A DNA stretch of 64,000 bases from Ostreococcus lucimarinus (GCA_000092065.1 CP000594.1), one strand, 5' to 3'. Positions 1-19,222 are shown, counted from the stretch's first letter. Made by a program: numbers and translations. Notes: generated by a model from the sequence alone, not told the origin.

Positions 1-3000
1 GCGCAGAATTCCTTGAAGACCCCATGTTGACGCGAAACACTCGTCTTCGAGAGCGCAAAAGCCGGGTAGTGCGGAAGAACATCCGACATTGTGTATCGTT
101 CCAACAAGTCTCCGCCAAAACCAATCACCCCGCTGGTGATTCGTCTATCCTTGATCACACCAGTCGCGTCCGGGCGCGTGACGCTCGTCTTGTAGATTTG
201 AGTTTTCTCCGGAATCGACCCTGTCGTATAGCCCTGAAACCACGTCATGTCGCGAAGATCGATTTCGAAGATACCGAGATCGTGCCAGTTCGCAGCCTTC
301 GAACACCGACTTGAGTCAGAGGCGTCGCATAAGCAAACGTGACCCCGGCGATCAACAAACGAGTCGCTCTTTTGGGCGCTCATATCCAACTCGAGATCGC
401 GCCATTCCAAAAACGGGCGCATGGACGTCTCAATCTTTTGGTCGCGGGAATACAACTCTCCCGACAACAAGCCCGCACAAGTGGATTGGTTTACAGACTG
501 GACTGAATCGACAGCACCGGGAAAGCACTGGCTCAAGGGATATCGACGTCGTTCAAATGTATCCGGCAAACCTTTGTCTCGTAGTCTTTGGAGAGCCTTT
601 TTGTCGTACCTGTATGGTGCACGCATGCTGTACGACAAGTCCTCTTCGACGGGTCGGCCGACCGGCCGGACAATGTGATCACTTTGCCGAGCGAGCGTAG
701 TCTCGGCCCAAATGGTGGTAGTATCGTCCCACGCGCCCATACATCCGACGTTGTCGCCCGCAAGCAGTCGTATCCATGCCTTGCGAGGTATTATGGACGT
801 CCCACCTTCAACAAAGATCATATTCGTACGCTGACCAGAGAGCAGCCGCTTCGGCCCAAATCGTATCTGCTGCTCATCATATTTGGGAATACAAACGCTA
901 GCCTTGTCGTCAAAACCATACTTGGCGCCGATCCGACGCGCGCATTGCAATCCGTAAGCGCACTGGTCGTCGCTCATGCAATGTCCTTCGTACGCCTGGC
1001 ATACCTCTCCACCTCCGAGACCTCCACAGTAGTCGTAGTCACCATTCGTGAGATTGAATCGAGCGTTGTAAGCTTCCTTGTTTTCAAAGTAGCCATCAGA
1101 GCCCGAAAAATCGGCGCAACACGCGTACGGGTGAATTTCACTCTCCAGCGCGCACTGCTTTCCAGGAAGTCCCCCTCGAGAAGCGACGAAATATCCTCTG
1201 TCTGTAGCGTTTCCACACGTTTCGTTTGTCCAATAATACTTGCCGACGATATTTGGATCTCCATAACGTCTGGGGTTGCCTCCCCATTGCGTTCGTACGT
1301 AGCTGAGATCACATGTGTCACCGAATGCAAACCCACCGACGACGCCGCTAAGAAGTTCGTTCGCTGAACACAGACGCGTGCCAGCCTGCGCACACTGTCG
1401 CATGGCAAAATGACGCGAGCCAATGCTCTTGCCGCTCACGCCAGGCAAATTTCCTCTCGCGACGTGTTCCATATCACTCAATGCCTTTTTACACTGCTCC
1501 GATTTCTTTGCGCTCGCATCTCGATCAAAGCATGCGGAAGTGTCCGGAGCCACGGCTCTGAAGCCAGGCGCGCCGCACGTGTCAGAGCCTTGCCTCAGCG
1601 CAAAATAGTTTTTGAAAGTGAATCCGTCGGGCTGCATTCCGCCTTCAAGCTTTTCACAGTTCCGTGTCACGTTACACTCATTGTAGCATATTTGCTCAAT
1701 CTCGGGTGGCCCATGACCAACCAATAAACCAATCCAACCGCTGGTATAGCGGCTAGAGTTTTTCGTCAAACTTGCCTTATCGTACGCAATAAGCCCTTGA
1801 GGATCATATGAATGCCAGTCCAAGTCGTATCGCTTCTCGCAGTAGTGAAGTGGCACCTCGCGCACGCAAGGATTTATCATATCACCAGCCGCAAAACACT
1901 TTACCTCCCGACGACGCGACACTGAGCATGTTTCAAAATCGGACGTCCAGTTCCGTGCGAGGCATGGCGACCATTCACCGATAGAGTAAAAATGATTATG
2001 TTGAAACACAATTCTGACAGTGTCATCGTCACCCGTTTTCAGCCTCAGGCCGTAATGCCATCCTTTCATTTGTGCATCCGCAGCGCCATTCACCATCACA
2101 GAAAGATCGCCCTCCAAATCACCAACGCCGTACTTTTTCTGAGTTTTAAAGTCGGTGAAACTCGCCACACAAATGGACTCTCGCCTATTGAAGTTAAACG
2201 AGTTGCAAGCCATGTTGCGAGTTGGACCTTTTTTTAGCGAATCACAGAGCGCAATACACTCTGCCATAGTGAAGGCGGCGCTGCTCTCGATCGCAATGGC
2301 TGGTACGTACTTTTCCGGGTACAAGCGATAATTGTCCTTCATTTTGTTGTCAAATCGACTGCACGCTCCTCGATTACTTCCGAGCATCGCGGATCCAACA
2401 GTATGCGTACAGGGTCCAAGTTTCGTGTCACCTCTGCAGCATGAGCGACCACACTGTGTGACTACGTTGGTCTTCGTGCGAGGCGCCATAGTCCCAGTGA
2501 TTGTATTTCTTCTCTCAGGGCACTGTAAACGGTTCCATTCCAAGTGTATCGAAAGTCTTCCGCCGACGATGGGGTCAATACATCCAGTGTCATCAATCTC
2601 GTTGCCATGATAACACTCGTGACCGGTCAGATTCTTGGCGAAATCAAAGCAGCACCCGTAATCATGGCACGCGCGCGCGCGAGAATCAATGGACATGAAC
2701 TCACTTCGAACGTCGCCGTAGTACGCCGTACACTTGAAACGATCTTCCATTTTAAGCGCACAATCAGCTTTACAAGAGTGGGTGTTACACTCTCGAGAAG
2801 TCTGTGGTAAAACACCACAGATGTGATCTTGGAGCTGCTCGCCGGATGTGGTGTTGACGCAAATCGCGCTCCGCGTTTGTCCACCTCGCTCGCACTTTCG
2901 CGAACAGTTACTCCATTCGCTAATTTCCCATCGGAATCCAAGTGGGTCTTCACCGTAACAATCAGCGTAGCCCCACAAGCCAGGCTTGGAGGTGTAGCAC

Positions 3001-3887
3001 CAAGGTCTCGTGGAAGGCTCGGCCGGCGCACGACCCACAAGGGTTGGTTCAAAGAATTCAACGACTGTCTGCCTTTGACGCGCGTTATAGTCGGTGGTAA
3101 AGGGAAAGACGCACGGCGCGCCACCAGCTGTACCTTCACACGTCGGTATCGCTCTTGAATGCACGACAAAATCTGCATCATTGAGCATCGAAGAGCCATC
3201 GGTGACGCTCTTGAGCAACATCGCGCTCGTCGTCGACACATCAAACGGACGCGTTGTCGAAAGTCCAAGCGTGTCGTGCTTTTTGTACATCCGCGCGGCA
3301 CAGTCCGTCGTGTTTATGCACGTATAATACCCTTGGCATTGGGAATCGCTTGCACAAAGCGTTCGTAGCCCAGTCTCTGATTTCCCGTTCACCGCGCGCC
3401 AAGCGAGAAGATCTGGAAACGCAACCATTTTCCCCTTGTGCGCCTTCCACTTGGCCTTGGAGTGCACACTCTTCTTGCGATAAAAATCACTCTCCGCCGC
3501 TCGTTGTAACCCGAATCCGCGACCGACCAAAGTACAGAAGTCCGTGGTCAGATCCTTCTTGAAACCCGCGCAGGCGAACCCTTTCGCGTCGCACTCGCGT
3601 TCACACGCGTCGAAAGACTCATAAGTCTCCATCAGGTTACTCCCGACTGGAATGCGGCTTCCGTGCCACCAATAATTTGTTAAATCATCCTCCAACGACC
3701 CAAGAGCGGCTTCGGGAACGTTCACGCCCGCTTTTTTCATGGCGCGCCCCAAGCGTCCTTCGGGAACGCACCAAGCATATGCCGTTCGACCGTGAATTCC
3801 GATTAACACGAACGTAGCGACGAGGATGAACGCGGCCGAGTTCCACCCAATCCATCTATCGCGCGTTCTTGTTCTTCTCGTCGTCAT
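1..3887 (-). CDS. Secreted multidomain protein, 3' end beyond window (>1,290 aa). Domains read from a manual reverse-complement translation: signal peptide, PAN/apple-like, FN2/kringle-like (CVFPF...PWCYT...WGYADC), thrombospondin type-1 repeat (WSNCSRKCERGGQTRSAIC), further Cys-rich PAN-like and possible lectin-like modules
   Basis: Manual reverse-complement translation from ATG at 3887-3885 gives an uninterrupted protein-like frame (carefully verified 3887->3000, less carefully to position 1). The N-terminus MTTRRTRTRDRWIGWNSAAFILVATFVLIGIHGRTAYA has signal-peptide character. The ORF is missing from the supplied track, consistent with the track listing only complete ORFs. Plus-strand ORFs 24..1367 are antisense artefacts. 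Confidence 0.6.
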   Translation of the reverse strand, partial: MTTRRTRTRDRWIGWNSAAFILVATFVLIGIHGRTAYAWCVPEGRLGRAMKKAGVNVPEAALGSLEDDLTNYWWHGSRIPVGSNLMETYESFDACERECDAKGFACAGFKKDLTTDFCTLVGRGFGLQRAAESDFYRKKSVHSKAKWKAHKGKMVAFPDLLAWRAVNGKSETGLRTLCASDSQCQGYYTCINTTDCAARMYKKHDTLGLSTTRPFDVSTTSAMLLKSVTDGSSMLNDADFVVHSRAIPTCEGTAGGAPCVFPFTTDYNARQRQTVVEFFEPTLVGRAPAEPSTRPWCYTSKPGLWGYADCYGEDPLGFRWEISEWSNCSRKCERGGQTRSAICVNTTSGEQLQDHICGVLPQTSRECNTHSCKADCALKMEDRFKCTAYYGDVRSEFMSIDSRARACHDYGCCFDFAKNLTGHECYHGNEIDDTGCIDPIVGGRLSIHLEWNRLQCPERRNTITGTMAPRTKTNVVTQCGRSCCRGDTKLGPCTHTVGSAMLGSNRGACSRFDNKMKDNYRLYPEKYVPAIAIESSAAFTMAECIALCDSLKKGPTRNMACNSFNFNRRESICVASFTDFKTQKKYGVGDLEGDLSVMVNGAADAQMKGWHYGLRLKTGDDDTVRIVFQHNHFYSIGEWSPCLARNWTSDFETCSVSRRREVKCFAAGDMINPCVREVPLHYCEKRYDLDWHSYDPQGLIAYDKASLTKNSSRYTSGWIGLLVGHGPPEIEQICYNECNVTRNCEKLEGGMQPDGFTFKNYFALRQGSDTCGAPGFRAVAPDTSACFDRDASAKKSEQCKKALSDMEHVARGNLPGVSGKSIGSRHFAMRQCAQAGTRLCSANELLSGVVGGFAFGDTCDLSYVRTQWGGNPRRYGDPNIVGKYYWTNETCGNATDRGYFVASRGGLPGKQCALESEIHPYACCADFSGSDGYFENKEAYNARFNLTNGDYDYCGGLGGGEVCQAYEGHCMSDDQCAYGLQCARRIGAKYGFDDKASVCIPKYDEQQIRFGPKRLLSGQRTNMIFVEGGTSIIPRKAWIRLLAGDNVGCMGAWDDTTTIWAETTLARQSDHIVRPVGRPVEEDLSYSMRAPYRYDKKALQRLRDKGLPDTFERRRYPLSQCFPGAVDSVQSVNQSTCAGLLSGELYSRDQKIETSMRPFLEWRDLELDMSAQKSDSFVDRRGHVCLCDASDSSRCSKAANWHDLGIFEIDLRDMTWFQGYTTGSIPEKTQIYKTSVTRPDATGVIKDRRITSGVIGFGGDLLERYTMSDVLPHYPAFALSKTSVSRQHGVFKEFC

Positions 3888-4150
3888 CGGTGCGTCAACG
3901 CCCGTCATGGGCGTTCGATTCTCGACCTCGTTGCCACGGATGGTGTTGGCGGAAACCTCGAGTGATAGCGCGGGTGAGTCTCGAACGAACGGGTGAGTTA
4001 CGGGTGAGTCTCGAACGACTGTTTCTTTTCTCGGCCACGCGCGCGTTTTCTTTTGTCCGCCTCTCTCTCTCGCGCGCGTCGTCGAGTGATGCTGGTGCCG
4101 CTCGTGACGGATTTAAGGGCTTGAACACCCGCGTGTAAAGGCAGACACTT

Positions 4151-4230
4151 TATATAGCACTTTGGGAGGTTAAAAGGTGTCCCAAAGTCTCATACATTGG
4201 CCTATACTTTGGCAACATCCCGCGCTTTGA
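4151..4230. repeat. Intergenic repeat module R1 copy A: TATATA-box-like + hairpin CTTTGGGAGG-ttaaaa-...-TCCCAAAG + ATCCCGCGCTTTGA
   Basis: ~80% identical to 16791..16870. The stem shows a compensatory change between copies (GGGAGG/TCCC vs GGGCGG/CGCCC). Confidence 0.6.
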
Positions 4231-4585
4231 TTACAGTACAGTAATATAACCCCCGCCAATGCGCGGGATGAATGGCATACATTCCATAGTATATGGGGAC
4301 CGGACCGGCGGGACGTGTGATTTTTACCGTATGGGTCACGACTCGTCATTCGGAGTACTCGTATGGAATAATGAAACACCATAACTGCATTTACTTTTTG
4401 GTTCATTAAAAAAACCGTACGGGCATTTACTGCAGAATTGGCCACTTTTCGCGCGGGTTTCACTGGACACGTGTCAAAAACGTGGCTTTTCTGAAACTCG
4501 ATTTTTGCTAGGGTTTAGCGTCTCAGTGTCCCGACGGAGATACAGTGCGGGGATCCCGTCGGCAGCACTCTCCGTCGCGCACGCA

Positions 4586-7500
4586 ATGTCGAAGAAATCT
4601 GATCCACTGTATGTACCAGTCAACACGTGTGAAGACGACACAGTCGGTCTTCTTCGGACGATCGATGAAGTTCAAGTAGACGAGGGTGAAACCAACGTTA
4701 CTTCGCCCGAAGATAATAATTGTGACGGCGGCGTTCGAGTAGTAGACATGGTTGGGTTGATACGGAACGGGCTGCATGCGCGGAGGTGCGCGAGCAGACG
4801 ACGGTCCACCGCGATCATCCACGTTTTGTTAACTGTCGTTCTGGCAAGTTTTTTGCGTTCGACCTTGGCGTTTGAAAGGACAGATGGGTTTCAAGGCGAG
4901 CTTGAAGATACCGCACACGAAGGACCGGGAGCATCAAGGAGTTCGGTGGCGAACGAAACCGCGGCGCTGGGGTGTGCATGGGGGATACCTTGTCCGCCAG
5001 TGGCTCAGGCGGTGGTGGATGTCGTGTCAGATCCACATGGTGCTGCCGAAGATGCTGCGAACCTGGCTGGAGATGGACTCAATAGTGCTGTAGATGCAGC
5101 AGCGGCTGGGGCAACATTTTTGTACGATCAAGGGACGGCAGCCGCGAGCGCAGCAGCGGCAGCGGCGACAGAGTTGGCGTCGGCTGGATTTGAATTCGCC
5201 AAGGGTGCGGCCACAAGCGCATACGCGATGGGTTGCTCCGCGGCGGCGATGGCTTGGAACACGGCGACGGCGGTCTATGACCGTATGAGCGACCCAGAAA
5301 AATTTTTGTCAGACATGATTGACAGCTTTCCCACATCTTTGGGGGATTTGAAGTCGCTTTCGGGCAAGGCACTCGCAGTCGGTGGAGAAGCCTTCGTGGA
5401 GATGAATGCGAATAATCCCGTTGGACGCCAAGCGCTCGCTGCTGTCAAAAAGGCAAACGAAATCGGCGGCAAGTACGGTTTCGAGAACCTTCAGAAATTC
5501 ACCGCTGTGGGCGCGTCGTTGACGAATCGCGTTATCCCCGGCGGTGGCATAATTTTTGAAGCCGTGGACGTCGTCGGTGAAACGGCGCAAGATGCTGTGG
5601 ATACTGCGATTCTCATCGTGGAGTCTATGCTCAACGCTCTTGAGTGCAAAGTGTCGCCAGTCGATGTTATGGAGGTGATACAAAAAGTTGTCATCGAACA
5701 AATATCAAGCTGGAATGCGTTTGCGAAAATGTTCGAGGAGAAGAAGGGGACTGACTTCTTCTACAAACTCGATCATGTCATCTGCAATACTCTTTGGACA
5801 GTGGCTATGCCGCATGCGGACTTGATGGTGACGGCGATTGGCGTCCTCCTGGAAAAAGTCCAAGCCACTTGTCCAGGAGTTATCCCAGCGGATTCCAAAC
5901 CAGCAGCTACGCTGGGGTTGATTTTTGACGCGTCTGTAAAAGGGGGCTCAATGAAAGGTGTATCTGCTGAGGTTGGCATCGGTGCTGACATTGATGGGAA
6001 CAAATTTTGCTATTTCGGCTCCTGCGCTTACGCAGGTATATCGTTTGGTGGCTACGGTGCTGATGGGACGATGTTGGCGGGACTCAGTGTTTGGAAGTCT
6101 ATGGATTCAGTTCCGGGCACCTCGAGTACATTTGCGTTCGCGGCCGATATCACCATGCCATTACTCCCCTCGTTTGATCCCGGAGTCACGTTCGTTTCAA
6201 ACGACGCCGGGCTCATCGGCATCAGTGTCTCAAAAGAAATCCCCGGCGGCGACGAACCAAGTGGTGAATTTTCGGTCACGAAAGGGCGATGCGTAACGCC
6301 TGTTTGTGTCAAGACAGATGGTAATCCTTGTGGTGAGGGTCAGGCTGCTTGGTCCGACGTGGGCTCGCATGCGACTGCTGCAGTGGAGGCGATCAAGACG
6401 GATGAGTGCATAGTTGCTGGTGCCGGTGTGATTGAACAAAATGGTGGAATTTCCGTGAGTCGAGAAATCCGGTTACCGGCGTCTGGGGTGAACCTTCTTG
6501 CCGATGCTGAGGCAAACCCGACGGGAATGAAGAATTTTAAGCCCTCAAGCGTGAGGATTCCTGAGGGTAAATTCTTACTTGCGTTTACCGGTGGTGATGA
6601 AGCATTTAAGGGGAGCGAGACAGTGATTCGTAGCTATAAGTCAAAACTCAACAACCGTTTGTATTCAATGACGTCCTTTGTCGTTTCTGACATTGCAGCC
6701 GAGTTTCACGAAGAAGCGCCAAAATCAGTTGGCCCAGAACATGCTGGTTCAATCAGTAAATGTAAAGCGATGTGCGCGGTGAAGAAACACTGCTGCAATA
6801 CGGATGAATCCATCGGAAGTAACCAGTATCTAAGCTGCCTACAGGCATGCGTCGTCCGCGTGCGTGGAACCGACGAGCGGACATGTAACTCTTACTGTGC
6901 ATCTGCAACGACTTCTCGTCACATTAATGGTTACATGTACAACCTCGCAACATCTTGCGCTGATGTCGTTGCATCCGAAGGAAAGTTATGTTCTACTCGG
7001 TACGGTAGCGATCGTTCAACCTGCCTATACGGTTGTTCGATCGGACGCGACCCCGAACAATCGCTCGCAGTCGTCAAATCCACTGGATTCTATATGCAAC
7101 TTCCTGCGGCACATGTTACCCCCAGGTCGACGAATAATTTGCGCGATCGGACGTTGAGTAGTGTGATTGTTCGAGCCGGGTTTGTTGTTAAACTGTACGC
7201 CGGGCGCGACCTGAAAGGTCAATACCTGACGCTCGGGAGTTCGGCGACGCTGTATGGTAACCATGCGAGGTTCTATTCATCCTTACGCGGATCATTCCCG
7301 AACACGAAGTTTGCCTGGGCAAATTTCAATGACAGAACTCGGAGCATCGCCATCTTGGAGGCGCCTGTGACGCTTTATACGCAACCCAATTTCCATGGCG
7401 ATCATGAATCAAAACTTGAGCATGCATTTGACTACACCAGTCTCGGTCCGACAGTCGGGGACAGGCATGTTAATTCCATCTTTCTAAGAGAAGGATCTGT

Positions 7501-10500
7501 GGTTGAAGTATACGAGGGACGCAGTTTCAACGGTCGAGGCATGCAGTTCATATCCAGCGTATCAGATGTCCGCCGCGCAACTGAATCCATCGGTGACCTT
7601 TCTAGACCGACATGGCAAAGAGTTTATGGAACTGCAAGTATGGTTGACGCGGGTCGTGAAGAAGTATATAGTATTCACGCAGATGACGTCGCAAATACAA
7701 AGCCAGTTGATAATTCTGGTGACTGGTCGGACTTTTTGACACTGAAGTGGAGTCATATTTCTGTTGGGCCCACAGGCCATGTATGGGCGATTCGTAAACC
7801 TTACGGCAACGCTTATCACTGCATGCCACATCAAACCTCTTGCAAGACCAAATGGGAGTATACCAGGCTCACCCAGCTGGATGCTGGAAGTTTGTACGTT
7901 TGGGGGGTGACGTACTCGGGATACGTATACAGGCATCTCGTGAACACACACGAGGGTTCATGGACACGTGTAAATGCGCCAGATACGATGAAGCATATCT
8001 CAATAGGCCCAAGTGGCGATGTCTGGGCGGTATCGACGACGAATAAAGTATATTTCTGCGTGCATCCGTGTACTGGATCGTGGCGTGTCATCGGCGCATC
8101 CGCACCCGTAAAACGTCTCATATTTACTGTGAACAATGACAAATATATGGCTCGTGTCGATTTGAAGACTGACGGTAGTATTAATTTCAACGCTGGTCAT
8201 AAAGTAGCTGGCTGGTTGAGTCTAAGCGGAATCACGTACGCCACGAGCGGTCTCAACTATCTTTCCCTAAACTCGCGTTATTGGGAACATTATAGTGGCA
8301 TGAATGGCTACTGGTCGCCAGCCCAATACTCGTGCTCGAACGGCCTCGTTTCTGTGACTGGGCTCGTGAAGACAAAAAATCATGGCTGGGGGCAGGTCAT
8401 CGGTACTCTCCCGTCAGGGTGTCGTCCGACGAAAGCACTCATCTTCACCACGAATAACCACGATGAGCAGGCGCGAGTGAACGTATACGCCGACGGGACG
8501 ATCAAATGGGGTGCCGGCGGCAAGGGTCACGGATGGTTGAGCCTAAGTAACATTGTCTTTTCGACCAGTGGCAACGCGCTTTTACCTCTGAGCAATGGTT
8601 GGGCGCACTACAGTGGCACGAGTGGCTACTGGTCGCCTGCTGAGTACTCGTGCGCCGACGGCCTCGTGGTCTTGAGTGGATTAGTACGCGGTAGTAACTG
8701 GGGTTCTACTATCGGCACTCTTCCTCCGGGTTGTCGTCCGAAACAAGCTCTCATCTTCACCACGAACAACAGCGATAAGCAAGCGCGAGTGAACGTGTCA
8801 CCGGGGGGGGTGATCAAATGGTCACGTGGTGGCAAGGGCCACGGTTGGTTGAGCCTGAGCGGCATCGTATTTGCAATGACTGGGCTGCAGTTGATGCCTC
8901 TGAGCAACGGTTGGAAGTACTATAACGGCGCGAGAACGAGCGGGTATTGGGCACCCGCACAGGTCGCGTCTGTGCGCGGCCTCACCGTTGCTCAAGGCCT
9001 TATCAAAGGCGGTGGATGGGGTGGAACAATGGCAAAAATTACCGGTGGATGCGGATATATGAGTGATTTAATGTCCCTGACTAAGAAGAACGCGGGTCAA
9101 CATAGCACAGCACATAATGGCGTTGCAAGCCGCCCGTTGACGTCGACTCCAAATGGGCGCTGGGGGGGTGGCACGTGCACGCACACGAATCATGCGTCCG
9201 ACCCATGGTGGCGACTTGATATGGGGACGACGAGGACCTTGAGTTCGGTGGAGTTGTTGAATCGCAACGACTGCTGCAGTGACCGCTTTATCGGCCTCCG
9301 CGTCTACATCAGCAATCATAACTCCTACGTAAAGGATCATCCGAGTAACAAACAGTGCGGGCAGACGTTGGGATCGCCGAATACTGCCTGGAATATATTC
9401 GACTGCGGCGATGCCATCTCTGGGCGCTACGTATACGCCACCCTATATGGTAAAGCAGCACCGTTAACTATCTGCGGTGTCAGGATGTTCGAATCAAATA
9501 CGATGATAAAGCAGCTGGACGTTGGAAAGCGCTATGTTTACGGAACCAGTACGAATGGTCATCTTTTTAAAATCCGTGCCGATGGGGGCGAGGATAACTG
9601 GTCCCTCGTACATCGTTATAGCGAATTCGGCGGTATTGATGCCAATTATGTTTCAGTCTCACCGCATTCCGAACAATCGTCGTTCCTGTGGGTTACAAAC
9701 CAAGCGAACGAAATTTATCGCCAATCCATCGGAATACAAATCTCTTCCATGAGAGTCGCCTCGGCAATCGTAACTGCTTACAAAGGTGTGGGATTTACCG
9801 GTGATAGTCTGCCCCTGACTTCCGGTTTTTATAACTTTAAGACGCTCGAGGCAGACTCAGACGCCGGATTTAAGCTCACGAACCTCAGAGCGTTTGTGCG
9901 AAGCATCAAGTCTATAAGGATCCATCCAGACTACGAGGTTGAGCTGCGCGGTTATAATCAAGCACGAGCAGTCGTCACCTCTAGTACAATGGGAGTACAC
10001 GATTTTCATAAACTGGACACAGAGGGCAAGGAACACGAAGAGAATATAGTTGGAGCTACAAGATTTCCGCGACCGAGCGGTGTCTCACGCAAATCGACGT
10101 TTATGCCAATCGAAGCAACTACGCTAGGAACATGGATCCAAACACGAACTGCCAACGTTTACGTGATGTCAGATCTATCAGCCACCCCAAGTGCTCTCAT
10201 TAGGTACATTGCTGCGTACGGCGATGCAGAATATTGCAAAATGATCATGTTTCACGTGCGTCACGGCGATGAAGTCTCTGTTGTGCCTGAGGAGGCTGGA
10301 TATGCGACTTTTGGCATCAGAGATGCGTCTTCCGACAAGTGTCAGAATCGCGACGGTGTACTATCGCTCTGGCGTATAAAGCAAACTCCGAGATTGGCGC
10401 GCCGCGCGACAGATGCAGGCTACGGCATCGGAAAGTTGAAATTCTCGATTTTGGGAGGCTGGACGGGAGAAATAGCCTCAATGAAAGTGATGAGAAAACT

Positions 10501-10996
10501 CACTTATGTCCAAGGGTACTCCGGTGGCCGTCATCGTAATGAGGGAGGAAATCCAAAACGGACTCCACGAGAATGTCGGGACATCGCTAAAAGCAAGGGT
10601 TTACCTGCCTGGGGATTTCGAACCGGCCGTCATAATGATCCTAACTGGCGGTTTACGTGCTTCTTTTATGAGCACGGATTTGGGAGATTTGCGGGTAATG
10701 ATGACACAATGCATATGACAGGATGCGTCGATATATCCCGAAAGACCGCAAATGGCTGCGCACTGAGCGCATCAGCCAGCGCGCGGTTGGGTTCTGAAGA
10801 CTTAGAGACTTACCCTCGCGCGATGGCGAGACCAAAGGCGAGACTGCTAGAATCAGACTGGTACTATATCTCTGTCTGCTGTGTTCTCGTCAGCCTAGCG
10901 TCTGTGGTAGCGTTCGTCGCATTTCGACGCTCGCGAACGTCGGGCAAACGCATTCTACTTGAACGAGTCTCAACGAACTACGGTGCCACAATTTAA
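4586..10996 (+). CDS. Giant (~2,100 aa) membrane-anchored multi-lectin protein: N-terminal Ala/Gly-rich region, beta/gamma-crystallin-like segment, tectonin-type beta-propeller repeats, three ~105-aa tandem repeats, F5/8-type-C/fucolectin-like domain, C-terminal TM helix + short tail
   Basis: Single ORF listed 4505..10996 with a TTG start; the first ATG is at 4586 (MSKKSDP) and an alternative at 4748 (MVGLIR) is followed by a hydrophobic signal/anchor. Three tandem repeats (IFTxNNxDxxARVxxxxDGxIxxxxGxKxxGWLSLS...GYWSPAxYSCxxGLV). A CCSDRFIGLRVYI fucolectin-like motif. C-terminal WYYISVCCVLVSLASVVAFVAF TM helix. Confidence 0.7.
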   Translation: MSKKSDPLYVPVNTCEDDTVGLLRTIDEVQVDEGETNVTSPEDNNCDGGVRVVDMVGLIRNGLHARRCASRRRSTAIIHVLLTVVLASFLRSTLAFERTDGFQGELEDTAHEGPGASRSSVANETAALGCAWGIPCPPVAQAVVDVVSDPHGAAEDAANLAGDGLNSAVDAAAAGATFLYDQGTAAASAAAAAATELASAGFEFAKGAATSAYAMGCSAAAMAWNTATAVYDRMSDPEKFLSDMIDSFPTSLGDLKSLSGKALAVGGEAFVEMNANNPVGRQALAAVKKANEIGGKYGFENLQKFTAVGASLTNRVIPGGGIIFEAVDVVGETAQDAVDTAILIVESMLNALECKVSPVDVMEVIQKVVIEQISSWNAFAKMFEEKKGTDFFYKLDHVICNTLWTVAMPHADLMVTAIGVLLEKVQATCPGVIPADSKPAATLGLIFDASVKGGSMKGVSAEVGIGADIDGNKFCYFGSCAYAGISFGGYGADGTMLAGLSVWKSMDSVPGTSSTFAFAADITMPLLPSFDPGVTFVSNDAGLIGISVSKEIPGGDEPSGEFSVTKGRCVTPVCVKTDGNPCGEGQAAWSDVGSHATAAVEAIKTDECIVAGAGVIEQNGGISVSREIRLPASGVNLLADAEANPTGMKNFKPSSVRIPEGKFLLAFTGGDEAFKGSETVIRSYKSKLNNRLYSMTSFVVSDIAAEFHEEAPKSVGPEHAGSISKCKAMCAVKKHCCNTDESIGSNQYLSCLQACVVRVRGTDERTCNSYCASATTSRHINGYMYNLATSCADVVASEGKLCSTRYGSDRSTCLYGCSIGRDPEQSLAVVKSTGFYMQLPAAHVTPRSTNNLRDRTLSSVIVRAGFVVKLYAGRDLKGQYLTLGSSATLYGNHARFYSSLRGSFPNTKFAWANFNDRTRSIAILEAPVTLYTQPNFHGDHESKLEHAFDYTSLGPTVGDRHVNSIFLREGSVVEVYEGRSFNGRGMQFISSVSDVRRATESIGDLSRPTWQRVYGTASMVDAGREEVYSIHADDVANTKPVDNSGDWSDFLTLKWSHISVGPTGHVWAIRKPYGNAYHCMPHQTSCKTKWEYTRLTQLDAGSLYVWGVTYSGYVYRHLVNTHEGSWTRVNAPDTMKHISIGPSGDVWAVSTTNKVYFCVHPCTGSWRVIGASAPVKRLIFTVNNDKYMARVDLKTDGSINFNAGHKVAGWLSLSGITYATSGLNYLSLNSRYWEHYSGMNGYWSPAQYSCSNGLVSVTGLVKTKNHGWGQVIGTLPSGCRPTKALIFTTNNHDEQARVNVYADGTIKWGAGGKGHGWLSLSNIVFSTSGNALLPLSNGWAHYSGTSGYWSPAEYSCADGLVVLSGLVRGSNWGSTIGTLPPGCRPKQALIFTTNNSDKQARVNVSPGGVIKWSRGGKGHGWLSLSGIVFAMTGLQLMPLSNGWKYYNGARTSGYWAPAQVASVRGLTVAQGLIKGGGWGGTMAKITGGCGYMSDLMSLTKKNAGQHSTAHNGVASRPLTSTPNGRWGGGTCTHTNHASDPWWRLDMGTTRTLSSVELLNRNDCCSDRFIGLRVYISNHNSYVKDHPSNKQCGQTLGSPNTAWNIFDCGDAISGRYVYATLYGKAAPLTICGVRMFESNTMIKQLDVGKRYVYGTSTNGHLFKIRADGGEDNWSLVHRYSEFGGIDANYVSVSPHSEQSSFLWVTNQANEIYRQSIGIQISSMRVASAIVTAYKGVGFTGDSLPLTSGFYNFKTLEADSDAGFKLTNLRAFVRSIKSIRIHPDYEVELRGYNQARAVVTSSTMGVHDFHKLDTEGKEHEENIVGATRFPRPSGVSRKSTFMPIEATTLGTWIQTRTANVYVMSDLSATPSALIRYIAAYGDAEYCKMIMFHVRHGDEVSVVPEEAGYATFGIRDASSDKCQNRDGVLSLWRIKQTPRLARRATDAGYGIGKLKFSILGGWTGEIASMKVMRKLTYVQGYSGGRHRNEGGNPKRTPRECRDIAKSKGLPAWGFRTGRHNDPNWRFTCFFYEHGFGRFAGNDDTMHMTGCVDISRKTANGCALSASASARLGSEDLETYPRAMARPKARLLESDWYYISVCCVLVSLASVVAFVAFRRSRTSGKRILLERVSTNYGATI

Positions 10997-11265
10997 ACAA
11001 ATCATTTCAAACCATCCTATTATTGGCATTGTGGTAAGTACAATCGACCTCACGGAAAAGGCAGGCGGTACTGGCGTCGAAGAGTCGCGTGAGATTTCGC
11101 TTAAGATTTCGGCACCCTCGCTTAAGATCTCTTCAGAATCGAATCTCTGAACGCAAGGCGTGGATGTACATTAAACCATGAACGAGGCGGGACACGGTTC
11201 GATTTTTGGATTACAAGTGTAGGTCTACTTTTACGTTTCGTGGACTCCGCTCGAGTCGGCCGATG

Positions 11266-12075
11266 TCACCATGTCAGGTGTTTCGAGTGCACTAGAGACG
11301 TGACCGCCGATACACAGGACGTCGAGCTCGGCGTGCCTGATTTCACGACTCGGCGACCATGGTTTGAAACCGAAATGACCATCGGCTTCAGGCCCAGGCG
11401 CGGCCGCAATGCTACTTTAAACTTAATTTTTTTTTTTTGAAAAAAGAGTAGTAAGAGTAATAAAAATAAACTTTTTTTTTGTTTGAGTTGGGGCCCCCCC
11501 AACATGATAAAACCGCACATCGACGTTGATGTACCACATGTAAGATTTCTCCGGGAACCAATCGTGTGAGTGAAGTGGTCAAACCAAGCCACGCAACTCA
11601 TCGACCGTAAATTGATACTTGTCGAGACTGCGCTTCGAAGGCAGCGTGCCGCGCGCTCGAGCATTCTTGAGGCACGTCTTACGCAGTATCTTTTCGCGTG
11701 CTGCTTGTAATAATTGAGTTGTCTGTAGTTACCATCGCCGCCGTCCCGCTTCGGCGTATATTGAGCTCTGCTGTAGGCCGGACTCTCGTCCACGTTCTCG
11801 TGGCACGCCTGCTTCTGGCTGCGTCCAGTAGCTCGGGAGTTGAATAAGCCGTCACGCTTCTCTCTCATGTAGGCACTTTTACGTTGATGGAGCTCTCCAG
11901 CTGGAATGTCCTTTTCGAGAACTCTCACGTCCGCGTCGCCAAACGTGAAGATTGGATGCCGTGCGTATTTATGCGAGGCAAGGCGCGCTCTGATCGAACC
12001 TGTCGTCGATCCGATGTACGTTTTGTCACATTTCGCATTATCGCTATACATTTCGTACACGCATCCCGACGGCAT
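11266..12075 (-). CDS. GIY-YIG family (homing-type) endonuclease; C-terminal ~90 codons run through a poly(A/T) tract without a stop (possibly decaying)
   Basis: N-terminus CVYEMYSDNAKCDKTYIGSTTGSIRARLASHKY matches the GIY-YIG motif (GIY...YIGS...R...H; compare I-TevI GIYQIKNTLNNKVYVGSAKDFEKRWKRH). Downstream E...N (REKRDGLFNS) fits. Low-GC codon usage. Confidence 0.55.
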   Translation of the reverse strand: MPSGCVYEMYSDNAKCDKTYIGSTTGSIRARLASHKYARHPIFTFGDADVRVLEKDIPAGELHQRKSAYMREKRDGLFNSRATGRSQKQACHENVDESPAYSRAQYTPKRDGGDGNYRQLNYYKQHAKRYCVRRASRMLERAARCLRSAVSTSINLRSMSCVAWFDHFTHTIGSRRNLTCGTSTSMCGFIMLGGPQLKQKKSLFLLLLLLFFQKKKIKFKVALRPRLGLKPMVISVSNHGRRVVKSGTPSSTSCVSAVTSLVHSKHLTW

Positions 12076-12244
12076 TTGTCCTGGTTACCTATCTATCCCT
12101 AAGAAAATATTGTTGCCTCCTCCTGCGGTTTGCAGTCACATTCGAGAGACCATAGGTACTCGTGTCGCTGCGTGGGGTGCAAGGTCCGGGATGTAGATAT
12201 CGAACCGCCCGATTTCACACCTGGACGTTCGTGATCCGTCGAGA

Positions 12245-12435
12245 CCTGACGAAATGACGAACTTGTTTTGTCGTCCCGAAATTCGTCAGCCCGTCGTTCG
12301 GTCACACTTTGTGTGTACCAATGATGAAAATGACGAAATGTTAAAATATTTTAATGTTTATTTTTATTTTAGATCTATGACAAGCAACAGTGTAGACCTT
12401 TATGAAAACAGTTCGTCATTCGTCATTTCGTCAGG
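12245..12435. promoter_or_regulatory. Inverted repeat (CCTGACGAAATGACGAAC / GTTCGTCATTCGTCATTTCGTCAGG) flanking an AT-rich core between the D5 3' end and the GIY-YIG 5' end
   Basis: Arms at 12245..12262 and 12411..12435 are near-perfect reverse complements. The core 12325..12375 is >80% AT. Confidence 0.35.
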
Positions 12436-12500: not shown

Positions 12501-14711
12501 TTAGTATGAGCACCAGACGACCGCCGGCGCGAGCTCCGTCTCCCCCGTGTACCCATTGTTCTTCAGCCACTCGAAGCACCCGTCGCGGTCAATTTCCCAA
12601 TAAACGCCCTTCTCGTCCCTACCTTGCCTCAGGTGGTCCTCTTGCATTGGGACCCTGTGGCCCTTTTCCTTCTTGAAGAAGTCCTTGAGCTTATTACCGA
12701 CCTTCGTCGCGCTATCTTGACCGCGCGCAGCCGCTGGCAACCACGTCTGGTATTCGATGAAGATGTCACTGTTGCGGATTTTATTTCCAACCCACTTCTC
12801 AGGGAATTCAACAGTGACGCAATGCTCAAACCATCGAGTGAACTTGGGCATGCATCCACGCTTCATTTCCGAATACGCATCGGTCGTAGGTCTGTCTTTG
12901 ACGTAGTCAAAGGTCGATAGGTCGAGCCCCATGAGATGGTCGTAGATTGCCCTCAAGTTCCTCGGATCCCTGATGTAAACCTCGCGGAATTCCTTCAAGA
13001 ATCCAGTCTGGTCGTTCAAGTGCGTGAGCAGTGGCTCCATGACGACGAACCGACGATCACTCATTTCCAGAAAGACCGGGTAGTCGTCGTTCGAGAAAAA
13101 TAGGAACCCAACCAGATTCATGATGACGTACAGCTGCACGTGCTTCGGGTTGATTGTGAAACTCGTGTCCGTGAGCATCGACTTCAGCAACTTTCTATAC
13201 ATTTTCATGATGCACTCATCTGCTTCGTTCAACGCGAGGCACTTTTTGCCTTCAATCATGTTCGCATGCGTCCCAAATATGTCCTTTTTCGGATCAGCCG
13301 TCTCGTGAAACGTCTTGCCCATGAGCGCGTGAAGCAGGTGCAGGAAAGTGCCCTTGCCGGTACCTTGGACTCCTCGAAACACGAGCGACGTGATCGGCTT
13401 CTCTTCGGGTCTCTGGAAGAGACACGCGAACCAATTCGAAGCGTACTCGAGCGCATTTTCTGAACCGCCACATAGCACCAGGAGGAGCTCGAGGAAAGGC
13501 TTCACGTCGCCCTCTTTGCCCAGTTCACTGGGGATGCCTTCGACCGGGTAGCCTCGCCACAGATTGTACGTCTTGTTGCTGCAGTTTTTCGGGACGACGT
13601 CGAGGTTATCGTACACCCGTTTATTGTCGTCGTCGAGCCACTTTTCGATGAACCCGTTTTTCTTGCCTTTCCTCAAGACACCGTTCTCATCGACAAAGGA
13701 GAGCTCTCGATAGCGCCTCACCAAAGCGGCCTCGCTGTACTTGGTAATGTCCCCGGTGGTTCCATAACAGCTATCGTCGCAGAAGAGGTCCTTGGTTAAG
13801 ATCTTTGCGACGTGCTTCTCGAACTCACGGCGGACCTCGATGTAGCCCGCAGACGTGCCCTCTTTGATTTCGTTCTGCTCCTTTTCGGTGATACCGGTCA
13901 CCAAACACCCAACCTCAAAGCGAAACTGTCTGGGCTTGCAGTTGCCATGGTTTTTCACGGTGAGCACGCCGAGACCGACCTCGGCGACGTAAAAGTGATT
14001 CCCACCGCCCCTTCCATTGCCTTCGTGGAAGCCCCCACAGCAAGGACATTGGCCCACAGTGGTGCCTCGCTGTGGGCGACATTGGTCGCATTCAAAATCA
14101 TACGATGTCGCTCCACTGAGCCAATGTATGCCCGTGAACCCCATTTCCTCGAGCAAAGGTGTCACAGATGCTTGCGTAAAGCTGCACTCCGTGTCCGCGC
14201 GTTCGACCTTGTGACCGACTTTGCCATCAAGGAAACTGTACAAATCGTTGGGCATCGGTGGTAAATTGTTGATGTCGCCTCGGAGTAGCTCGTAGCCCGG
14301 GGCATCGGCACCGACCACGTAGTTACCCGTCGTACGGATATCGACGAACCCTTCGATGCCCACCGTGCCTTTCCAATCGCCGAATCGTTCTTCGTCCCAT
14401 GCGAAGTACGTGTGGTACCCGCCTGATCGCGTTTTGACGATATACGCGCCTTCCCCGCCGACCTTGCGCGTCAACATTTCTTCCGTGAGTTCAAACTCGC
14501 ACTTGCCACCGTAACAATCCCAGTCGATGACGAGGACACGGTTCGGTCGCCCTGTCAGCACGCCGTACATTTCTCCTGGGATGACTTTCTGCGTATTCCG
14601 TTCATAGTTTGCTTCATCGAGGAACCCCCTGCCGCATGTTGGCTCCTTGTCCTGGTCGAGTGGGATCAGATGCATGCCGTTCGTAAATTCTCTGGCGTCC
14701 ATATATATCAC
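12501..14711 (-). CDS. D5-like primase-helicase: N-terminal PrimPol (archaeo-eukaryotic primase) domain, D5_N, SF3 helicase (NCLDV/PLV/virophage/phage-P4 type)
   Basis: 736-aa ORF. PrimPol motifs (VLVIDWDCYGG...GGYHTYF...FVDIRTTGNYVVGA). Walker A VFRGVQGTGKGT and Walker B CLALNEADE of an SF3 helicase. Low-GC codon usage. Confidence 0.85.
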   Translation of the reverse strand: MIYMDAREFTNGMHLIPLDQDKEPTCGRGFLDEANYERNTQKVIPGEMYGVLTGRPNRVLVIDWDCYGGKCEFELTEEMLTRKVGGEGAYIVKTRSGGYHTYFAWDEERFGDWKGTVGIEGFVDIRTTGNYVVGADAPGYELLRGDINNLPPMPNDLYSFLDGKVGHKVERADTECSFTQASVTPLLEEMGFTGIHWLSGATSYDFECDQCRPQRGTTVGQCPCCGGFHEGNGRGGGNHFYVAEVGLGVLTVKNHGNCKPRQFRFEVGCLVTGITEKEQNEIKEGTSAGYIEVRREFEKHVAKILTKDLFCDDSCYGTTGDITKYSEAALVRRYRELSFVDENGVLRKGKKNGFIEKWLDDDNKRVYDNLDVVPKNCSNKTYNLWRGYPVEGIPSELGKEGDVKPFLELLLVLCGGSENALEYASNWFACLFQRPEEKPITSLVFRGVQGTGKGTFLHLLHALMGKTFHETADPKKDIFGTHANMIEGKKCLALNEADECIMKMYRKLLKSMLTDTSFTINPKHVQLYVIMNLVGFLFFSNDDYPVFLEMSDRRFVVMEPLLTHLNDQTGFLKEFREVYIRDPRNLRAIYDHLMGLDLSTFDYVKDRPTTDAYSEMKRGCMPKFTRWFEHCVTVEFPEKWVGNKIRNSDIFIEYQTWLPAAARGQDSATKVGNKLKDFFKKEKGHRVPMQEDHLRQGRDEKGVYWEIDRDGCFEWLKNNGYTGETELAPAVVWCSY

Positions 14712-15181
14712 ATAAGAAAAGAATTCTTTAAGCCGTGTTTTTCCTGGTCACATCGGCGCGATGACTGATTTTCAAGTTTTTCAACAGCCTGGAAAAGCAC
14801 GCCAGCACGCCCCACTGGTCAACATTTTGCCACTTTTTCGACGAGATCGGGGTACTGCAAAGCACACGGCGAAGACGGGTGGCCGATGATCCATGTGTCC
14901 GTGTCTTCTCTGATGATTCGCTCCCGTTCATGGCTCAAGTGGTCGCGCGACCTCGCGCGTGAACGAAGGTGCCAAATTTTAGGTACCAGAGGTGCCCATT
15001 TCTTCGTGGTGAGATGGTCCCTCGTGTACCACGCCGCTCCCCTTTAAGTATGAAAAGTTATGTCCAATATATTGCGCGCGATGTCCGATGGTACACCATA
15101 CAATTTCATAGTTAAGCCACACTTATTATATGACGACAGTGCCTACCTGTCGGTGGTCACGGAAAAGTTGCGTCTCAGACT

Positions 15182-15320
15182 GAGGATGGCGTGGCTCATG
15201 CGAGCTATATATACCTCATATATACATATATTAACACTTATAACACTATTAATGTACAATTGATTGGATGAGGTGCTCAGTCCACCCGCGCGAGGTCAAC
15301 AGCAGCAATTGTCTATGCAC
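15182..15320. repeat. Direct repeat R2 copy A (~140 bp), includes the last ~20 nt and 3' flank of the metallothionein-like CDS
   Basis: ~90% identical to 16869..17008. Confidence 0.6.
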
Positions 15321-15643
15321 TTGGAGCATGAGTTTTTGCACTCGCACGACGGACACGCGCAGGAGGTGCATCCGCACGACTTACACGTGGTCGCATCGGG
15401 ACACGCGCATTTGTCGGGGCCACAAGCATCACAGTCTTTCGGGCAGCACGCCTTGTCCGTGGACTCAGATTGTACCGTCCGTGCTGCAACCCGCGTCGGG
15501 CGCGAGACGACGCGCACGGCGCGTGGCGCGGTTCTTGACAATACGAAATCTGGTATCTGCGTACTCTTTACCTTAACGGCGGAGACTTTGAGCATTGTTG
15601 CGTCGAGGAATGGGCCAAGGGTAAGTAACCTCGTGGTCGGCAC
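15296..15643 (-). CDS. Metallothionein-like cysteine-rich protein (19 Cys in the C-terminal 50 aa) with a Cys-free, transit-peptide-like 65-aa N-terminal extension
   Basis: C-terminus CCPKDCDACGPDKCACPDATTCKSCGCTSCACPSCECKNSCSKCIDNCCC. The N-terminus is S/T/R/V/A-rich with few acidic residues. Head-to-head with ferritin. Confidence 0.5.
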   Translation of the reverse strand: MPTTRLLTLGPFLDATMLKVSAVKVKSTQIPDFVLSRTAPRAVRVVSRPTRVAARTVQSESTDKACCPKDCDACGPDKCACPDATTCKSCGCTSCACPSCECKNSCSKCIDNCCC

Positions 15644-15684: not shown

Positions 15685-16542
15685 ATGAGATCGAGGGCAC
15701 CCCGTGAGCGATCACTCTTCGACGCGGAACTCGTTCCTGTAGACGGCCAGCCACCACTCGAACGACCATACGGCAGCACAAAAGTACATCCACAACGTGT
15801 ACGTATCGAAATGGCTGCCTATACTCAAGCGACGTTAACAGCACCTTCGTCGTCGACAGCCGTAAGCAATTCGAAGATAAGACTACGCCGTTCACGAACA
15901 ACTACGCGCACACATTCTGATCCGTCCGAAAGTACGCCGTTGAGTGAAGAGGCGCAAATCATAGTTGATGCATCGGAGGCGTACCCAGCGCAGACAAGCG
16001 TGGATTATTCGTTCGCAAGGAGTGGGTTCAGTAACCAGTGTGAACGAGCACTCAACGAGCAAATCAATGTCGAGTACAATATTTCGTACGTCTATCACGC
16101 CATGTGGGCGTACTTCAATCGTGACAATATCGCATTGGCTGGCTTTGCTGAACACTTTCGAAAAGAGTCACTGGAGGAGCGTGCGCATGCGGAACAACTC
16201 ATGGAGTACATGAACTTACGAGGCGGCAAAGTTGAGCTCCAACAATTGTTACCACCACAGAGTGAATACGATCGCCCGGAGAAAGGATGCGCACTATTAG
16301 CCCTGGAGCTGAGTTTGAGTCTCGAAAAGTTGAATAAAGAGAAACTGTGTGAACTGCATCGCGTCGCTGAGGATGCAGGAGACGCACATATGTGCGATTT
16401 TATTGAAGGCGAGTTATTAGACTCGCAGGTTCAAAGTGTGCGACAGGTTAGCGAGATGGTCGCCACGCTATTACGCATGGGACCGCCAGCAGATGGTATG
16501 GCAACTTGGCACTTCGATCAAACCTTACTTGAGGTGGCATAG
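15685..16542 (+). CDS. Ferritin (plant/algal type, with N-terminal targeting/extension peptide; alternative start ATG at 15811)
   Basis: QCERALNEQINVEYNISYVYHAMWAYFNRDNIALAGFAEHFRKESLEERAHAEQLMEYMNLRGGKV...SLEKLNKEKL...WHFDQTLLE matches the plant ferritin consensus (ferroxidase-centre residues E, Y, E..H present). Confidence 0.9.
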   Translation: MRSRAPRERSLFDAELVPVDGQPPLERPYGSTKVHPQRVRIEMAAYTQATLTAPSSSTAVSNSKIRLRRSRTTTRTHSDPSESTPLSEEAQIIVDASEAYPAQTSVDYSFARSGFSNQCERALNEQINVEYNISYVYHAMWAYFNRDNIALAGFAEHFRKESLEERAHAEQLMEYMNLRGGKVELQQLLPPQSEYDRPEKGCALLALELSLSLEKLNKEKLCELHRVAEDAGDAHMCDFIEGELLDSQVQSVRQVSEMVATLLRMGPPADGMATWHFDQTLLEVA

Positions 16543-16779: not shown

Positions 16780-16790
16780 TTCGGTTGGGC

Positions 16791-16870
16791 TATATAGCAC
16801 TTTGGGCGGTTAAAACCGCGCCCAAAGCCCCATATATTGTCCCATGTTTCGGCCAAATCCCGCGCTTTGA
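16791..16870. repeat. Repeat module R1 copy B (hairpin CTTTGGGCGG-ttaaaa-CCGCGCCCAAAG)
   Basis: Homologous to 4151..4230; abuts R2 copy B. Confidence 0.6.
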
Positions 16871-17008
16871 GGATGGCGTGGCTCATGCGACCTATATATG
16901 CCTCATGCGTACATATATTAACATTTATAAGGGTATTAATACATAATTGATTGGATGGGGTGCTCAGTCCACCCGCGCGAGGTCAACAGCAGCAATTGTC
17001 TTTGCACT
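16869..17008. repeat. Direct repeat R2 copy B
   Basis: ~90% identical to 15182..15320. Confidence 0.6.
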
Positions 17009-18968: not shown

Positions 18969-19090
18969 AGTTTGTTCCTTTAGTCGAGCGTCGGATTGTG
19001 GCGAAACGGCGGGTGCCCTCGGTCGGTCGGACGGACTTTCGCGGTCGGTCGGACGAGGGGCCCGTTGGCGCCCCGCGGGTGTGTGTACCA

Positions 19091-19106
19091 GCCCTTAGGG
19101 TTTAAT
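19091..19106. repeat. Telomere-like motif CCCTTAGGGTTTAATG at the island/host boundary
   Basis: Sequence seen directly; lies just upstream of the GC jump at ~19,200. Confidence 0.4.
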
Positions 19107-19222
19107 GTATATTAATGTATTTATGGGTATCATCCCGCGCAATTCGAGGGGTAGATTACTGTACTGTACAGTAACCCTCTAGTAGAACACGCTAGGTGAA
19201 ATCAAGCGCCGCGACCGTACGC

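Follow-up and report, generated by a model that had tools for sequence, protein, structure and literature searches.

A repeated module in Ostreococcus lucimarinus as a probable variant of the inverted ends of virus-related gene cassettes

Tc1/mariner/pogo-type transposons are bounded by terminal inverted repeats (TIRs), in some cases of the long inverted-repeat/direct-repeat type seen in Sleeping Beauty, and the string TAC(A/T)GTA is their canonical excision footprint. In the prokaryotic elements IS30 and IS911, whose transposases are known, dimer and circle junctions that bring two ends face to face across a 2-3 bp spacer are hyper-reactive and give deletions, inversions and fusions. Here we describe a stretch of 64,000 nucleotides (nt) from the alga Ostreococcus lucimarinus (CP000594.1), called the window below, and within it a repeated module, M, first recognised as two 80-nt copies, A (4151-4230) and B (16791-16870). 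We consider it probable that M is a variant of a family of inverted, DNA-level ends that bound mobile or recombining gene cassettes related to polinton-like viruses. The closest described inserts are the endogenous polinton-like viruses; the account of them puts capsid genes at 1-2 in each Ostreococcus genome and TIRs in roughly half of the inserts, but does not describe the ends considered here (Bellas et al. 2023, PMC10120064); our literature searches likewise found no description of these ends.

Like endogenous polinton-like viruses, the window insert is of low GC (G+C content) and ~15 kb long, and has TIRs, a primase-helicase and a GIY-YIG gene; its relatives in contigs L158 and L169 encode a capsid protein, and L158 has the terminal core in common with the window element. 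Unlike those viruses, the window element is without a capsid, packaging or integrase gene and carries genes for a lectin, ferritin and a Cys-rich membrane protein, while its ends are short (~35 nt of true inverted identity) and swap partners, and two integrated relatives are without the core. The likeness to Tc1/mariner/pogo TIRs lies in ends that begin 5'-CAGT and abut TA, in inverted ends that bound units, in terminal modules of ~170-220 nt with repeated internal motifs (of the GCGGGAYG/TTTGGGAC type), and in TAC(A/T)GTA strings beside ends, which in sequence match the canonical footprint. In contrast, no DDE/D transposase was found in any copy and no empty site proves a TA duplication, the 3.5-15 kb of cargo combines a viral primase-helicase with ferritin and with surface-protein genes of cellular type, and the ends habitually stand head-to-head with another end. 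Partner swapping at ATTACWG-TA-CWGTAAT (W, A or T) recalls the abutted ends of IS30 and IS911, although here the host is a eukaryote and no enzyme was found. With FRT, loxP and dif sites, integron attC sites and shufflons the locus shares inverted arms around a short central overlap and promoter-bearing or promoter-less cassettes that are reshuffled at a fixed site, whereas here no recombinase gene was found, the number of central 5-nt units varies and ends are also joined to sequences without a matching arm.

A family of inverted ends with one sharp boundary and many partners

The window consists of a low-GC island, from position 1 to about 19,170 (GC 0.49-0.54), and a remainder with a GC of 0.54-0.71, and by exact protein look-up its proteins match ABO99771-99776 of Ostreococcus lucimarinus CCE9901. 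The first-pass annotation had described M as a recurring intergenic module and a candidate island-specific promoter, and its basic observations are borne out. The two copies have 64/80 bases in common (80%; blastn E = 9.6e-14 within the window), both begin TATATAGCA and finish ATCCCGCGCTTTGA, and the inverted repeat reads CTTTGGGA...TCCCAAAG in copy A and CTTTGGGCG...CGCCCAAAG in copy B, the A-T to C-G double change between them being real. The 16-mer TATATAGCACTTTGGG occurs exactly twice in the window, and a third match, with 3 mismatches, is the other arm of copy B (0.09 matches at <=3 mismatches are expected by chance). Copy A does lie upstream of the giant lectin gene, 356 nt before its first ATG (4586), and the restriction to the island also stands, as an nhmmer profile of the module gave no match in the other 45 kb of the window. 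M also recurs beyond the window, in marine metagenomes, and nine distinct sequence types were obtained in all. These were collected by a metagenome scan with GCACTTTGGGNGGTTAAAA, the 3' arm being left free, which returned 23 loci of which 8 were true relatives, several with two copies, and by look-ups of the window proteins and the nhmmer profile.

Copy A is longer than first delimited, since its homology with the other copies runs via TTACAG to 4236. In every complete copy of M the homology continues through ...CGCGCTTTGA-TTAC(A/T)G and stops at TA, the sequence beyond differing by context. Copy B is cut short at TTTGA, where it runs directly into a 141-nt repeat (16868-17008, corresponding to 15181-15321 at 90% identity), while its ortholog in related strains, M-B', beside a 97%-identical ferritin gene, has kept the complete tip. 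Some 20 distinct ends, found in related contigs as well as in the window, can be aligned inward as C(A/T)GTAAT - (ACCCCC block) - GCGCGGGATG - AT-rich or TTTGGG-type motifs. Read inward, such an end has C(A/T)GTAAT beside a central TA (or GTAC), an optional ACCCCC, GCGCGGGATG, a subterminal TWTGGGRAC, a TATA-like box at a distance of 37-99 nt from the tip and, in most cases, the 5' leader of an inward gene. M is this common pattern with an 11-nt gap, the ACCCCC block being missing from copies A and B (M-A and M-B below), and with TWTGGGRAC doubled and inverted; this pair is the "hairpin" that first drew attention to the module. M-B' combines an M-type interior with the tip of a second type of end, T2, and the ends of contigs L152 and L156 are intermediate between M and the T2 end called T2a, so that the ends appear as mosaics of one family.

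Two ends usually meet head-to-head in the palindrome ATTACW-GTAC-WGTAAT. TACWGTAAT, for which 0.14 occurrences would be expected, is found three times in the 64-kb window (4230, 4237 and 19155), always within the island. T2a, at 4239, and T2b, at 19161, form a pair of inverted repeats, ~75% identical over their first 36 nt, that bound 14.9 kb containing the lectin, GIY-YIG, Prim-Pol/helicase, ferritin and 596-amino-acid (aa) Cys-rich genes. As with the TIRs of a Tc1/mariner-type transposon, inverted ends of one family are thus present at window 4239/19161, and again at 5967/9496 of contig L146, where one M-type and one T2-type end bound a 3.5-kb unit (5967-9496) with a single 952-aa gene. The terminal features of the window are the following.

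4151..4236, plus strand: M-A, M-type terminal module of 86 nt including the terminal TTACAG; inverted repeat at 4160-4168 / 4179-4187
4230..4245, no strand: head-to-head junction of M-A and T2a, ATTACAG-TA-CAGTAAT, an imperfect form of ATTACW-GTAC-WGTAAT
4239..4409, plus strand: T2a terminal module (CAGTAATATAACCCCCGCCAATGCGCGGGATG...), left end of the 14.9-kb unit, directed inward to the lectin gene; 4409 is a breakpoint in other strains
16791..16870, plus strand: M-B, M-type terminal module cut at TTTGA, terminal TTACWG lost
19046..19161, minus strand: T2b terminal module, right end of the unit, inverted relative to 4239, terminating ...CATCCCGCGCAATTCGAGGGGTAGATTACTG
19162..19174, no strand: TA-CTG-TA-CAGTAA, terminal fragments resembling footprints that separate the right end from the host flank; GC shifts here from island to host

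End fragments also occur on their own: contig L160 (~480-553) has a 24-nt "mini-element" made of two end fragments only (CAGTAACCC-A-GGGTTATATTACTG), beside a TA-CAG-TA string, and its CAGTAACCC fragment is also present at the right flank of the window (19169-19177).

The sequences joined to these ends vary among nearly identical genomes. In contigs 99.5-99.96% identical to window 14-19.2 kb, the 19161 end has five different continuations, four of which start with another CWGTAAT end, the fifth being the host flank of the window and of L148. The 4239 end has three partners before the lectin cassette (M-A, a T2b-like end or another sequence), and in one contig (L164) the junction is exactly 5 nt shorter. 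Five different partners were observed for the M-B' end beside an identical ferritin protein, and host neighbours vary as well, L145 having a poly(A) polymerase beside the element where L146 has a MOV10-like helicase. TA-CWG-TA strings adjoin single ends (TACTGTA at window 19162-19168, TA-CAG-TA in L172 and L146), and a junction contains 1, 2 or 3 CWGTA units. Every end abuts TA, and all seven independent single-end flanks (7/7) continue with C after it, so that GTAC, instead of TA, may be what the ends share at the centre.

One may also consider whether this diversity is an assembly artefact at a repeated palindrome, M then being a dispersed repeat without any particular position. The alternative junctions all come from short-read assemblies, and many contigs terminate at or close to repeats. 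On the other hand, the common palindrome is 16-18 nt long, well under the k-mers of the contigs that cross it (whose names include k119 and k141), the same junction types are found in independent samples and projects (TARA, JGI, ENA), and the reference genome itself shows ends in three contexts. We therefore regard an artefact as very improbable.

Polinton-like virus relatives and the joining mechanism

The replication gene that one would look for in a polinton-like virus is present in the window as the primase-helicase (12504-14711), and the helicases of L158 and L169 are ~33% identical to it; an exact-sequence look-up of the window helicase returned no contig. Both of these contigs also encode a ~445-aa protein (L158 5993-7303, L169 5893-7242) that belongs to a large marine family (proteins P0062-P0142) without a Pfam match. 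Its AlphaFold model (pLDDT 88, pTM 0.88) matches the major capsid proteins of PBCV-1, an iridovirus and Sputnik (Foldseek E = 3e-18 against PDB; TM 0.80 to the best predicted viral structure), which makes a double-jelly-roll major capsid protein a high-confidence prediction for the family. Given the predicted capsid protein and the helicase homologs, L158 and L169 are polinton-like viruses. The ~445-aa family marks a clade of polinton-like viruses in which the Prim-Pol helicase is accompanied, in L158 at least, by a GIY-YIG gene, and some of its members are integrated in host contigs of 185 kb and 317 kb.

The terminal core of L158 is ATTACAG-TA-CTGTAAT, a motif for which we estimate a chance expectation of ~2e-4 in 12 kb, and to the eye one arm of its junction is similar to the 141-nt repeat of the window. 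L157, whose helicase is 81% identical to that of the window, has a T2b-type end followed by TA. In L128 the copies of M are ~80% identical to those of the window, whereas the helicase is just 33% identical. With copies of M kept in L128 and the core in L158 despite helicases at 33%, the ends are far better conserved than the cargo. L157, a long-read contig from a related alga, has two primase-helicase genes 9 kb apart (1-881 and 10001-12181), 96-97% and 81% identical to that of the window, which indicates that several element lineages co-reside in one genome.

How the ends would be joined can be outlined only tentatively. Two ends would meet head-to-head as ATTACW-GTAC-WGTAAT, the DNA would be broken and rejoined at this point, and ends would thereby swap partners while cassettes are inverted, lost or moved; the inverted TTTGGG motifs would be putative protein-binding sites. 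Our best guess at the enzyme is a cut-and-paste activity of Tc1/mariner type supplied in trans, to which TA flanks, CAGT termini and footprint-like TAC(A/T)GTA strings all point, but it is a real possibility that the element's own GIY-YIG nuclease, or some other enzyme altogether, is responsible. If the modules are indeed such ends, we would give transposase-type joining roughly twice the weight of recombinase-type joining. The enzyme was sought in all long open reading frames (ORFs) of the window island and of L128, L145, L146, L149, L156, L157, L158, L159 and L169, and the sole hint was a sub-threshold TNP-like RNase H match (E = 9e-4) in a 308-aa ORF of L157. By its position the 952-aa ORF in the 3.5-kb unit of L146 was a candidate transposase, but it proved to be a three-fold repeat membrane protein and was rejected. 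As for integrases, neither rve nor tyrosine-recombinase matches were found in the window or its relatives.

The main alternative takes the palindrome, read as GATTAC-WGTACW-GTAATC, for a core site at which a conservative site-specific recombinase of tyrosine type would act, with two inverted binding arms and a 6-bp overlap; the modules would be accessory arms, and the cassettes would be inverted, excised and integrated like those of shufflons or integrons. The arm-spacer-arm layout fits such a site, as do the variable W bases at either margin of the putative overlap, the expected place of heteroduplex, and the C that follows TA in the single-end flanks, by which the common sequence reaches GTAC. 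Strain differences of inversion type exist too: in L131 and L146 position 4409 is joined to 12643 in reverse, and in L171 and L174 T2b-like ends lie directly past M-B'. Moreover, many polinton-like viruses encode tyrosine recombinases (PMC10120064). Yet no recombinase gene was found, junctions with one or three CWGTA units (L164, L153 and the right end in the window) would destroy or duplicate such a site, and ends are joined to unrelated sequences that have no partner arm. Taken together, we consider a tyrosine-type site unlikely but not negligible.

Several observations count against the view that M is an end of mobile, virus-related cassettes. No transposase, integrase or recombinase was recognised by Pfam or PHROGs in any cassette or in ~40 related contigs. 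No empty site was recovered, so that a target-site duplication is unproven and the centre may be TA or GTAC, and the differing number of CWGTA units could be the product of replication slippage rather than of excision. Some breakpoints lie off the core (4020, the reversed 4409-12643 join of L131/L146, 15074 and ~11389), indicating that general recombination among repeats adds to the scrambling. The diversity of junctions is known from short-read metagenome contigs, not from isolates. A tblastn search with the capsid family found no capsid gene in the window or in L157, and the core motif is absent from L181 and L183, long host contigs with integrated capsid-bearing relatives. IMG/VR contains no copy of the ends and no close helicase relative: a scan with the 14-mer TATAGCACTTTGGG gave 120+ chance matches and no true copy of M, the gapped arm-arm-CCCGCGC pattern and the T2-end pattern gave 0 matches each, the 18-nt palindrome gave 3 chance matches, in low-GC phage-like contigs, and a primase-helicase profile search gave weak Prim-Pol matches only. 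Finally, there is no inward gene at M6, M5, M-B or M-B', so that a promoter role of the ends is not general.

RNA and promoter readings of the module

The double change between copies A and B had been taken as a compensatory change, and hence as a sign that pairing in an RNA hairpin or cruciform is under selection. This does not survive the addition of further copies. Across the nine distinct copies the disputed pair is A-U three times, C-G once and unpaired five times, and the covariation score of 0.028 compares with 0.042 in shuffles, 441/500 of which score at least as high (286/500 for the 7-copy alignment). A single stem cell has both sides changed in the nine copies, and the 9-bp stem has four invariant pairs in the 7-copy alignment and three in the 9-copy alignment. 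Copies that break the pairing without compensation, which the first-pass annotation had itself named as decisive, do exist, in that M4 and M5 have lost the stem entirely and a C.A mismatch interrupts the middle of the stem in the L170 copy. The inverted repeat is therefore conserved because each arm is conserved in sequence, and not through compensation.

An RNA hairpin, whether a structure of a 5' untranslated region (UTR) or a small-RNA precursor, with selected pairing and a plus-strand TATA of its own, would account for the one A-U to C-G double change between the window copies and for a stem of 6-9 bp in 6/8 sequence types (dG -8 to -15 kcal/mol). Against this, in addition to the covariation and the broken stems, plus-strand RNA folding of copies A and B is no better than that of shuffled sequence (z = -0.4 and -0.6), and Rfam gives no match in window 1-20000 at E<=1. 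Since the 5' arm starts 3 nt past the TATA, RNA initiated ~30 nt downstream of the TATA could not include the hairpin. The ferritin mRNA terminates ahead of copy B; L003, the only RNA contig obtained, stops at a poly(A) site 72 nt before it. As to small RNAs, a 7-9 bp stem is too short for a precursor, a tRNA scan of the whole window (ARAGORN) found none, and M was rejected as a small-RNA or tRNA-like gene; Ostreococcus is not known to have Dicer or Argonaute. The hairpin reading is thus close to refuted, and we give it hardly any credence. That the covariation claim fails with more copies is worth recording, so that the module is not chased as an RNA element.

The proposal of an island-specific promoter fared better, though not in its original direction. 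Behind 13/20 ends there is a long inward ORF whose ATG lies 29-746 nt inside, in 10 of these cases at +100 to +350. The genes of the island and the distances concerned are as follows.

3..3908, minus strand: giant TSP1-domain ORF, at least 1302 aa, with a signal anchor, running past the left window edge and starting beside M-A
4020..4150, minus strand: leader kept together with M-A, 91-94% identical in other strains
4586..10996 (ORF listed as 4505/4586-10996), plus strand: giant tectonin / F5_F8-type-C lectin-like gene, 2136 aa, the first inward gene past T2a
11269..12075, minus strand: GIY-YIG-like ORF; its counterpart in L158, a relative that encodes the capsid protein, is 46% identical
12504..14711, minus strand: Prim-Pol + DUF5906 (superfamily 3) primase-helicase; DUF5906 is found in the window, Prim-Pol + DUF5906 in the homologs
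15685..16542, plus strand: ferritin gene, mRNA poly(A) site at 16719
17181..18968, minus strand: 596-aa Cys-rich gene, inward from the right end, ATG 194 nt from the terminus
Distance from end to inward ATG: T2a to lectin +348; T2b to 596-aa gene +194; T2c to 952-aa gene +294; M-A to TSP1 gene +329; M-A2 to ORF204 +227

The TATA-like box reported in M is present and is probably a promoter element, but the plus strand has TATATAG, whereas the minus strand of copy A reads TATATAAAG (4156->4148; 4156->4149 = TATATAAA) and faces the giant minus-strand gene. The direction of copy A is therefore likely to be opposite to that proposed, and the box would drive the inward gene, which for copy A is the one on the minus strand. 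That gene has a frame without stops from 4112 to the left window edge (at least 1370 codons, cysteine-rich, with an ATG near 3908), and 4020..4150 is probably its promoter-proximal or 5'-UTR segment; other strains have a breakpoint at 4020 and a different gene there (ORF204 in L145/L146). As a promoter of the lectin gene M was rejected, the better TATA being on the other strand and T2a, which lies between M and the lectin gene, having a TATA-like box of its own. Copies B, B', M5 and M6 face no gene, and several copies of M lie 3' of genes.

An initiation event near a module can be located at the ferritin gene. A poly(A)-tailed RNA contig (L003, run SRR847308) spans 15244-16719, which places the ferritin start 31-38 nt past TATATATA in the first of two copies of the 141-nt repeat:

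15181..15321, plus strand: 141-nt repeat copy 1, ferritin promoter; TATATATA at 15206-15213; RNA contig L003 starts at 15244
16868..17008, plus strand: 141-nt repeat copy 2, fused to M-B, with no plus-strand gene after it; faces the 3' end of the convergent 596-aa gene

The second copy is a duplicated promoter without a gene. The related strain L170 is without 15209-15647 entirely. The 3' UTR of the ferritin gene contains a AAACCCTAG...CTAGGGTTT palindrome. Telomere-like repeats (CCCTAAA / TTTAGGG, 1-3 units) lie beside several terminal modules (window 16756-16778, 19094-19103 and 16651-16680; L128 3322-3357; L147 ~3225-3236), and may represent telo-box promoter elements or else the remains of healed breaks.

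It is against this background that one may ask whether M is simply an ordinary promoter module, composed of a TATA, a palindromic transcription-factor site and a telomere-like box, that was spread by segmental duplication and has no role in mobility. Plant TATA core promoters with the telo-box AAACCCTAA are the obvious comparison, in that a telomere-like repeat lies ~20-30 nt past the TATA-like box in M-B (as the reverse complement), M5 and T2b, and most ends precede inward genes; they differ in that several copies of M face no gene. The usual spacing of inward genes (100-350 nt) and of TATA-like boxes (37-99 nt), the TATATAAAG directed toward the minus-strand gene at copy A, the RNA start behind the TATA of the 141-nt repeat, and the telomere-like AAACCCTAA all agree with a promoter module. 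Such a module would leave unexplained the invariant outer boundary CWGTAAT-TA with 3-5 partners in near-identical sequences, the inverted pairs that bound units, the copies 3' of genes with nothing to drive (M-B, M-B' and M6), and the conservation of ends among elements whose helicases are 33% identical. A promoter module without any part in mobility is therefore an improbable account of M, and we prefer to see the promoter features as belonging to the ends of cassettes.

Cargo and implications for Ostreococcus

In other strains, the genes that come first behind ends include those for a lectin paralog (31% identical), a >4156-aa protein, the three-fold repeat membrane protein and a TAXi/aspartyl-protease-like protein, each with the look of a secreted or surface protein; an ABM-domain protein opens one cassette instead. 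The loci concerned are L159 2634-4514, L170 1562-11122, L146 6348-9203, L156 3-557 and L171 1607-1999. Within the window, the giant lectin gene has a ~320-nt internal tandem duplication (8281-8934, 70% identity). The annotated 269-aa GIY-YIG ORF is broken by an AT-rich poly-T/poly-A stretch (11401-11480), and a small ORF on the opposite strand that overlaps it (11126-11437) is conserved, being 59% identical to that of L157; the GIY-YIG gene model may be wrong or intron-containing. The ferritin gene itself lies inside the mobile island, and relatives with an identical protein (L170-L174) have at least five downstream neighbours and a different upstream region, a variety of neighbours that is unexpected for a single-copy iron-storage gene.

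A bolder proposal, which we put forward as possible but still doubtful, is that the ATTACW-GTAC-WGTAAT junctions reflect an active, population-wide exchange of cassettes of polinton-like-virus origin, in which promoter-bearing ends carry genes for surface proteins (lectin, TSP1-type, Cys-rich, repeat membrane) and ferritin without a recognisable DDE transposase or integrase. The enzyme might then be the GIY-YIG nuclease acting with the Prim-Pol helicase, or some other enzyme of the host or of a virus.

The module itself is ordinary, but the locus that it marks is not, since its junctions differ among 99.9%-identical natural genomes, its cargo consists of surface-protein genes and ferritin, and no integrase is recognisable. 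M can serve to tag the ends of mobile, virus-related cassettes in an alga that is among the smallest free-living eukaryotes, and these ends may show how capsid-less derivatives of polinton-like viruses move. The cargo encodes mostly secreted or surface proteins and also includes the alga's ferritin gene, which has a bearing on iron physiology. Should the exchange be enzymatic and still under way, it would give rapid variation of the surface and of gene content in marine picophytoplankton, and it could be tracked in metagenomes by means of reads across CWGTAAT junctions. Cassette exchange, if true, would be a eukaryotic counterpart of the diversification brought about by integrons and shufflons, and it might play a part in the arms race with prasinoviruses.

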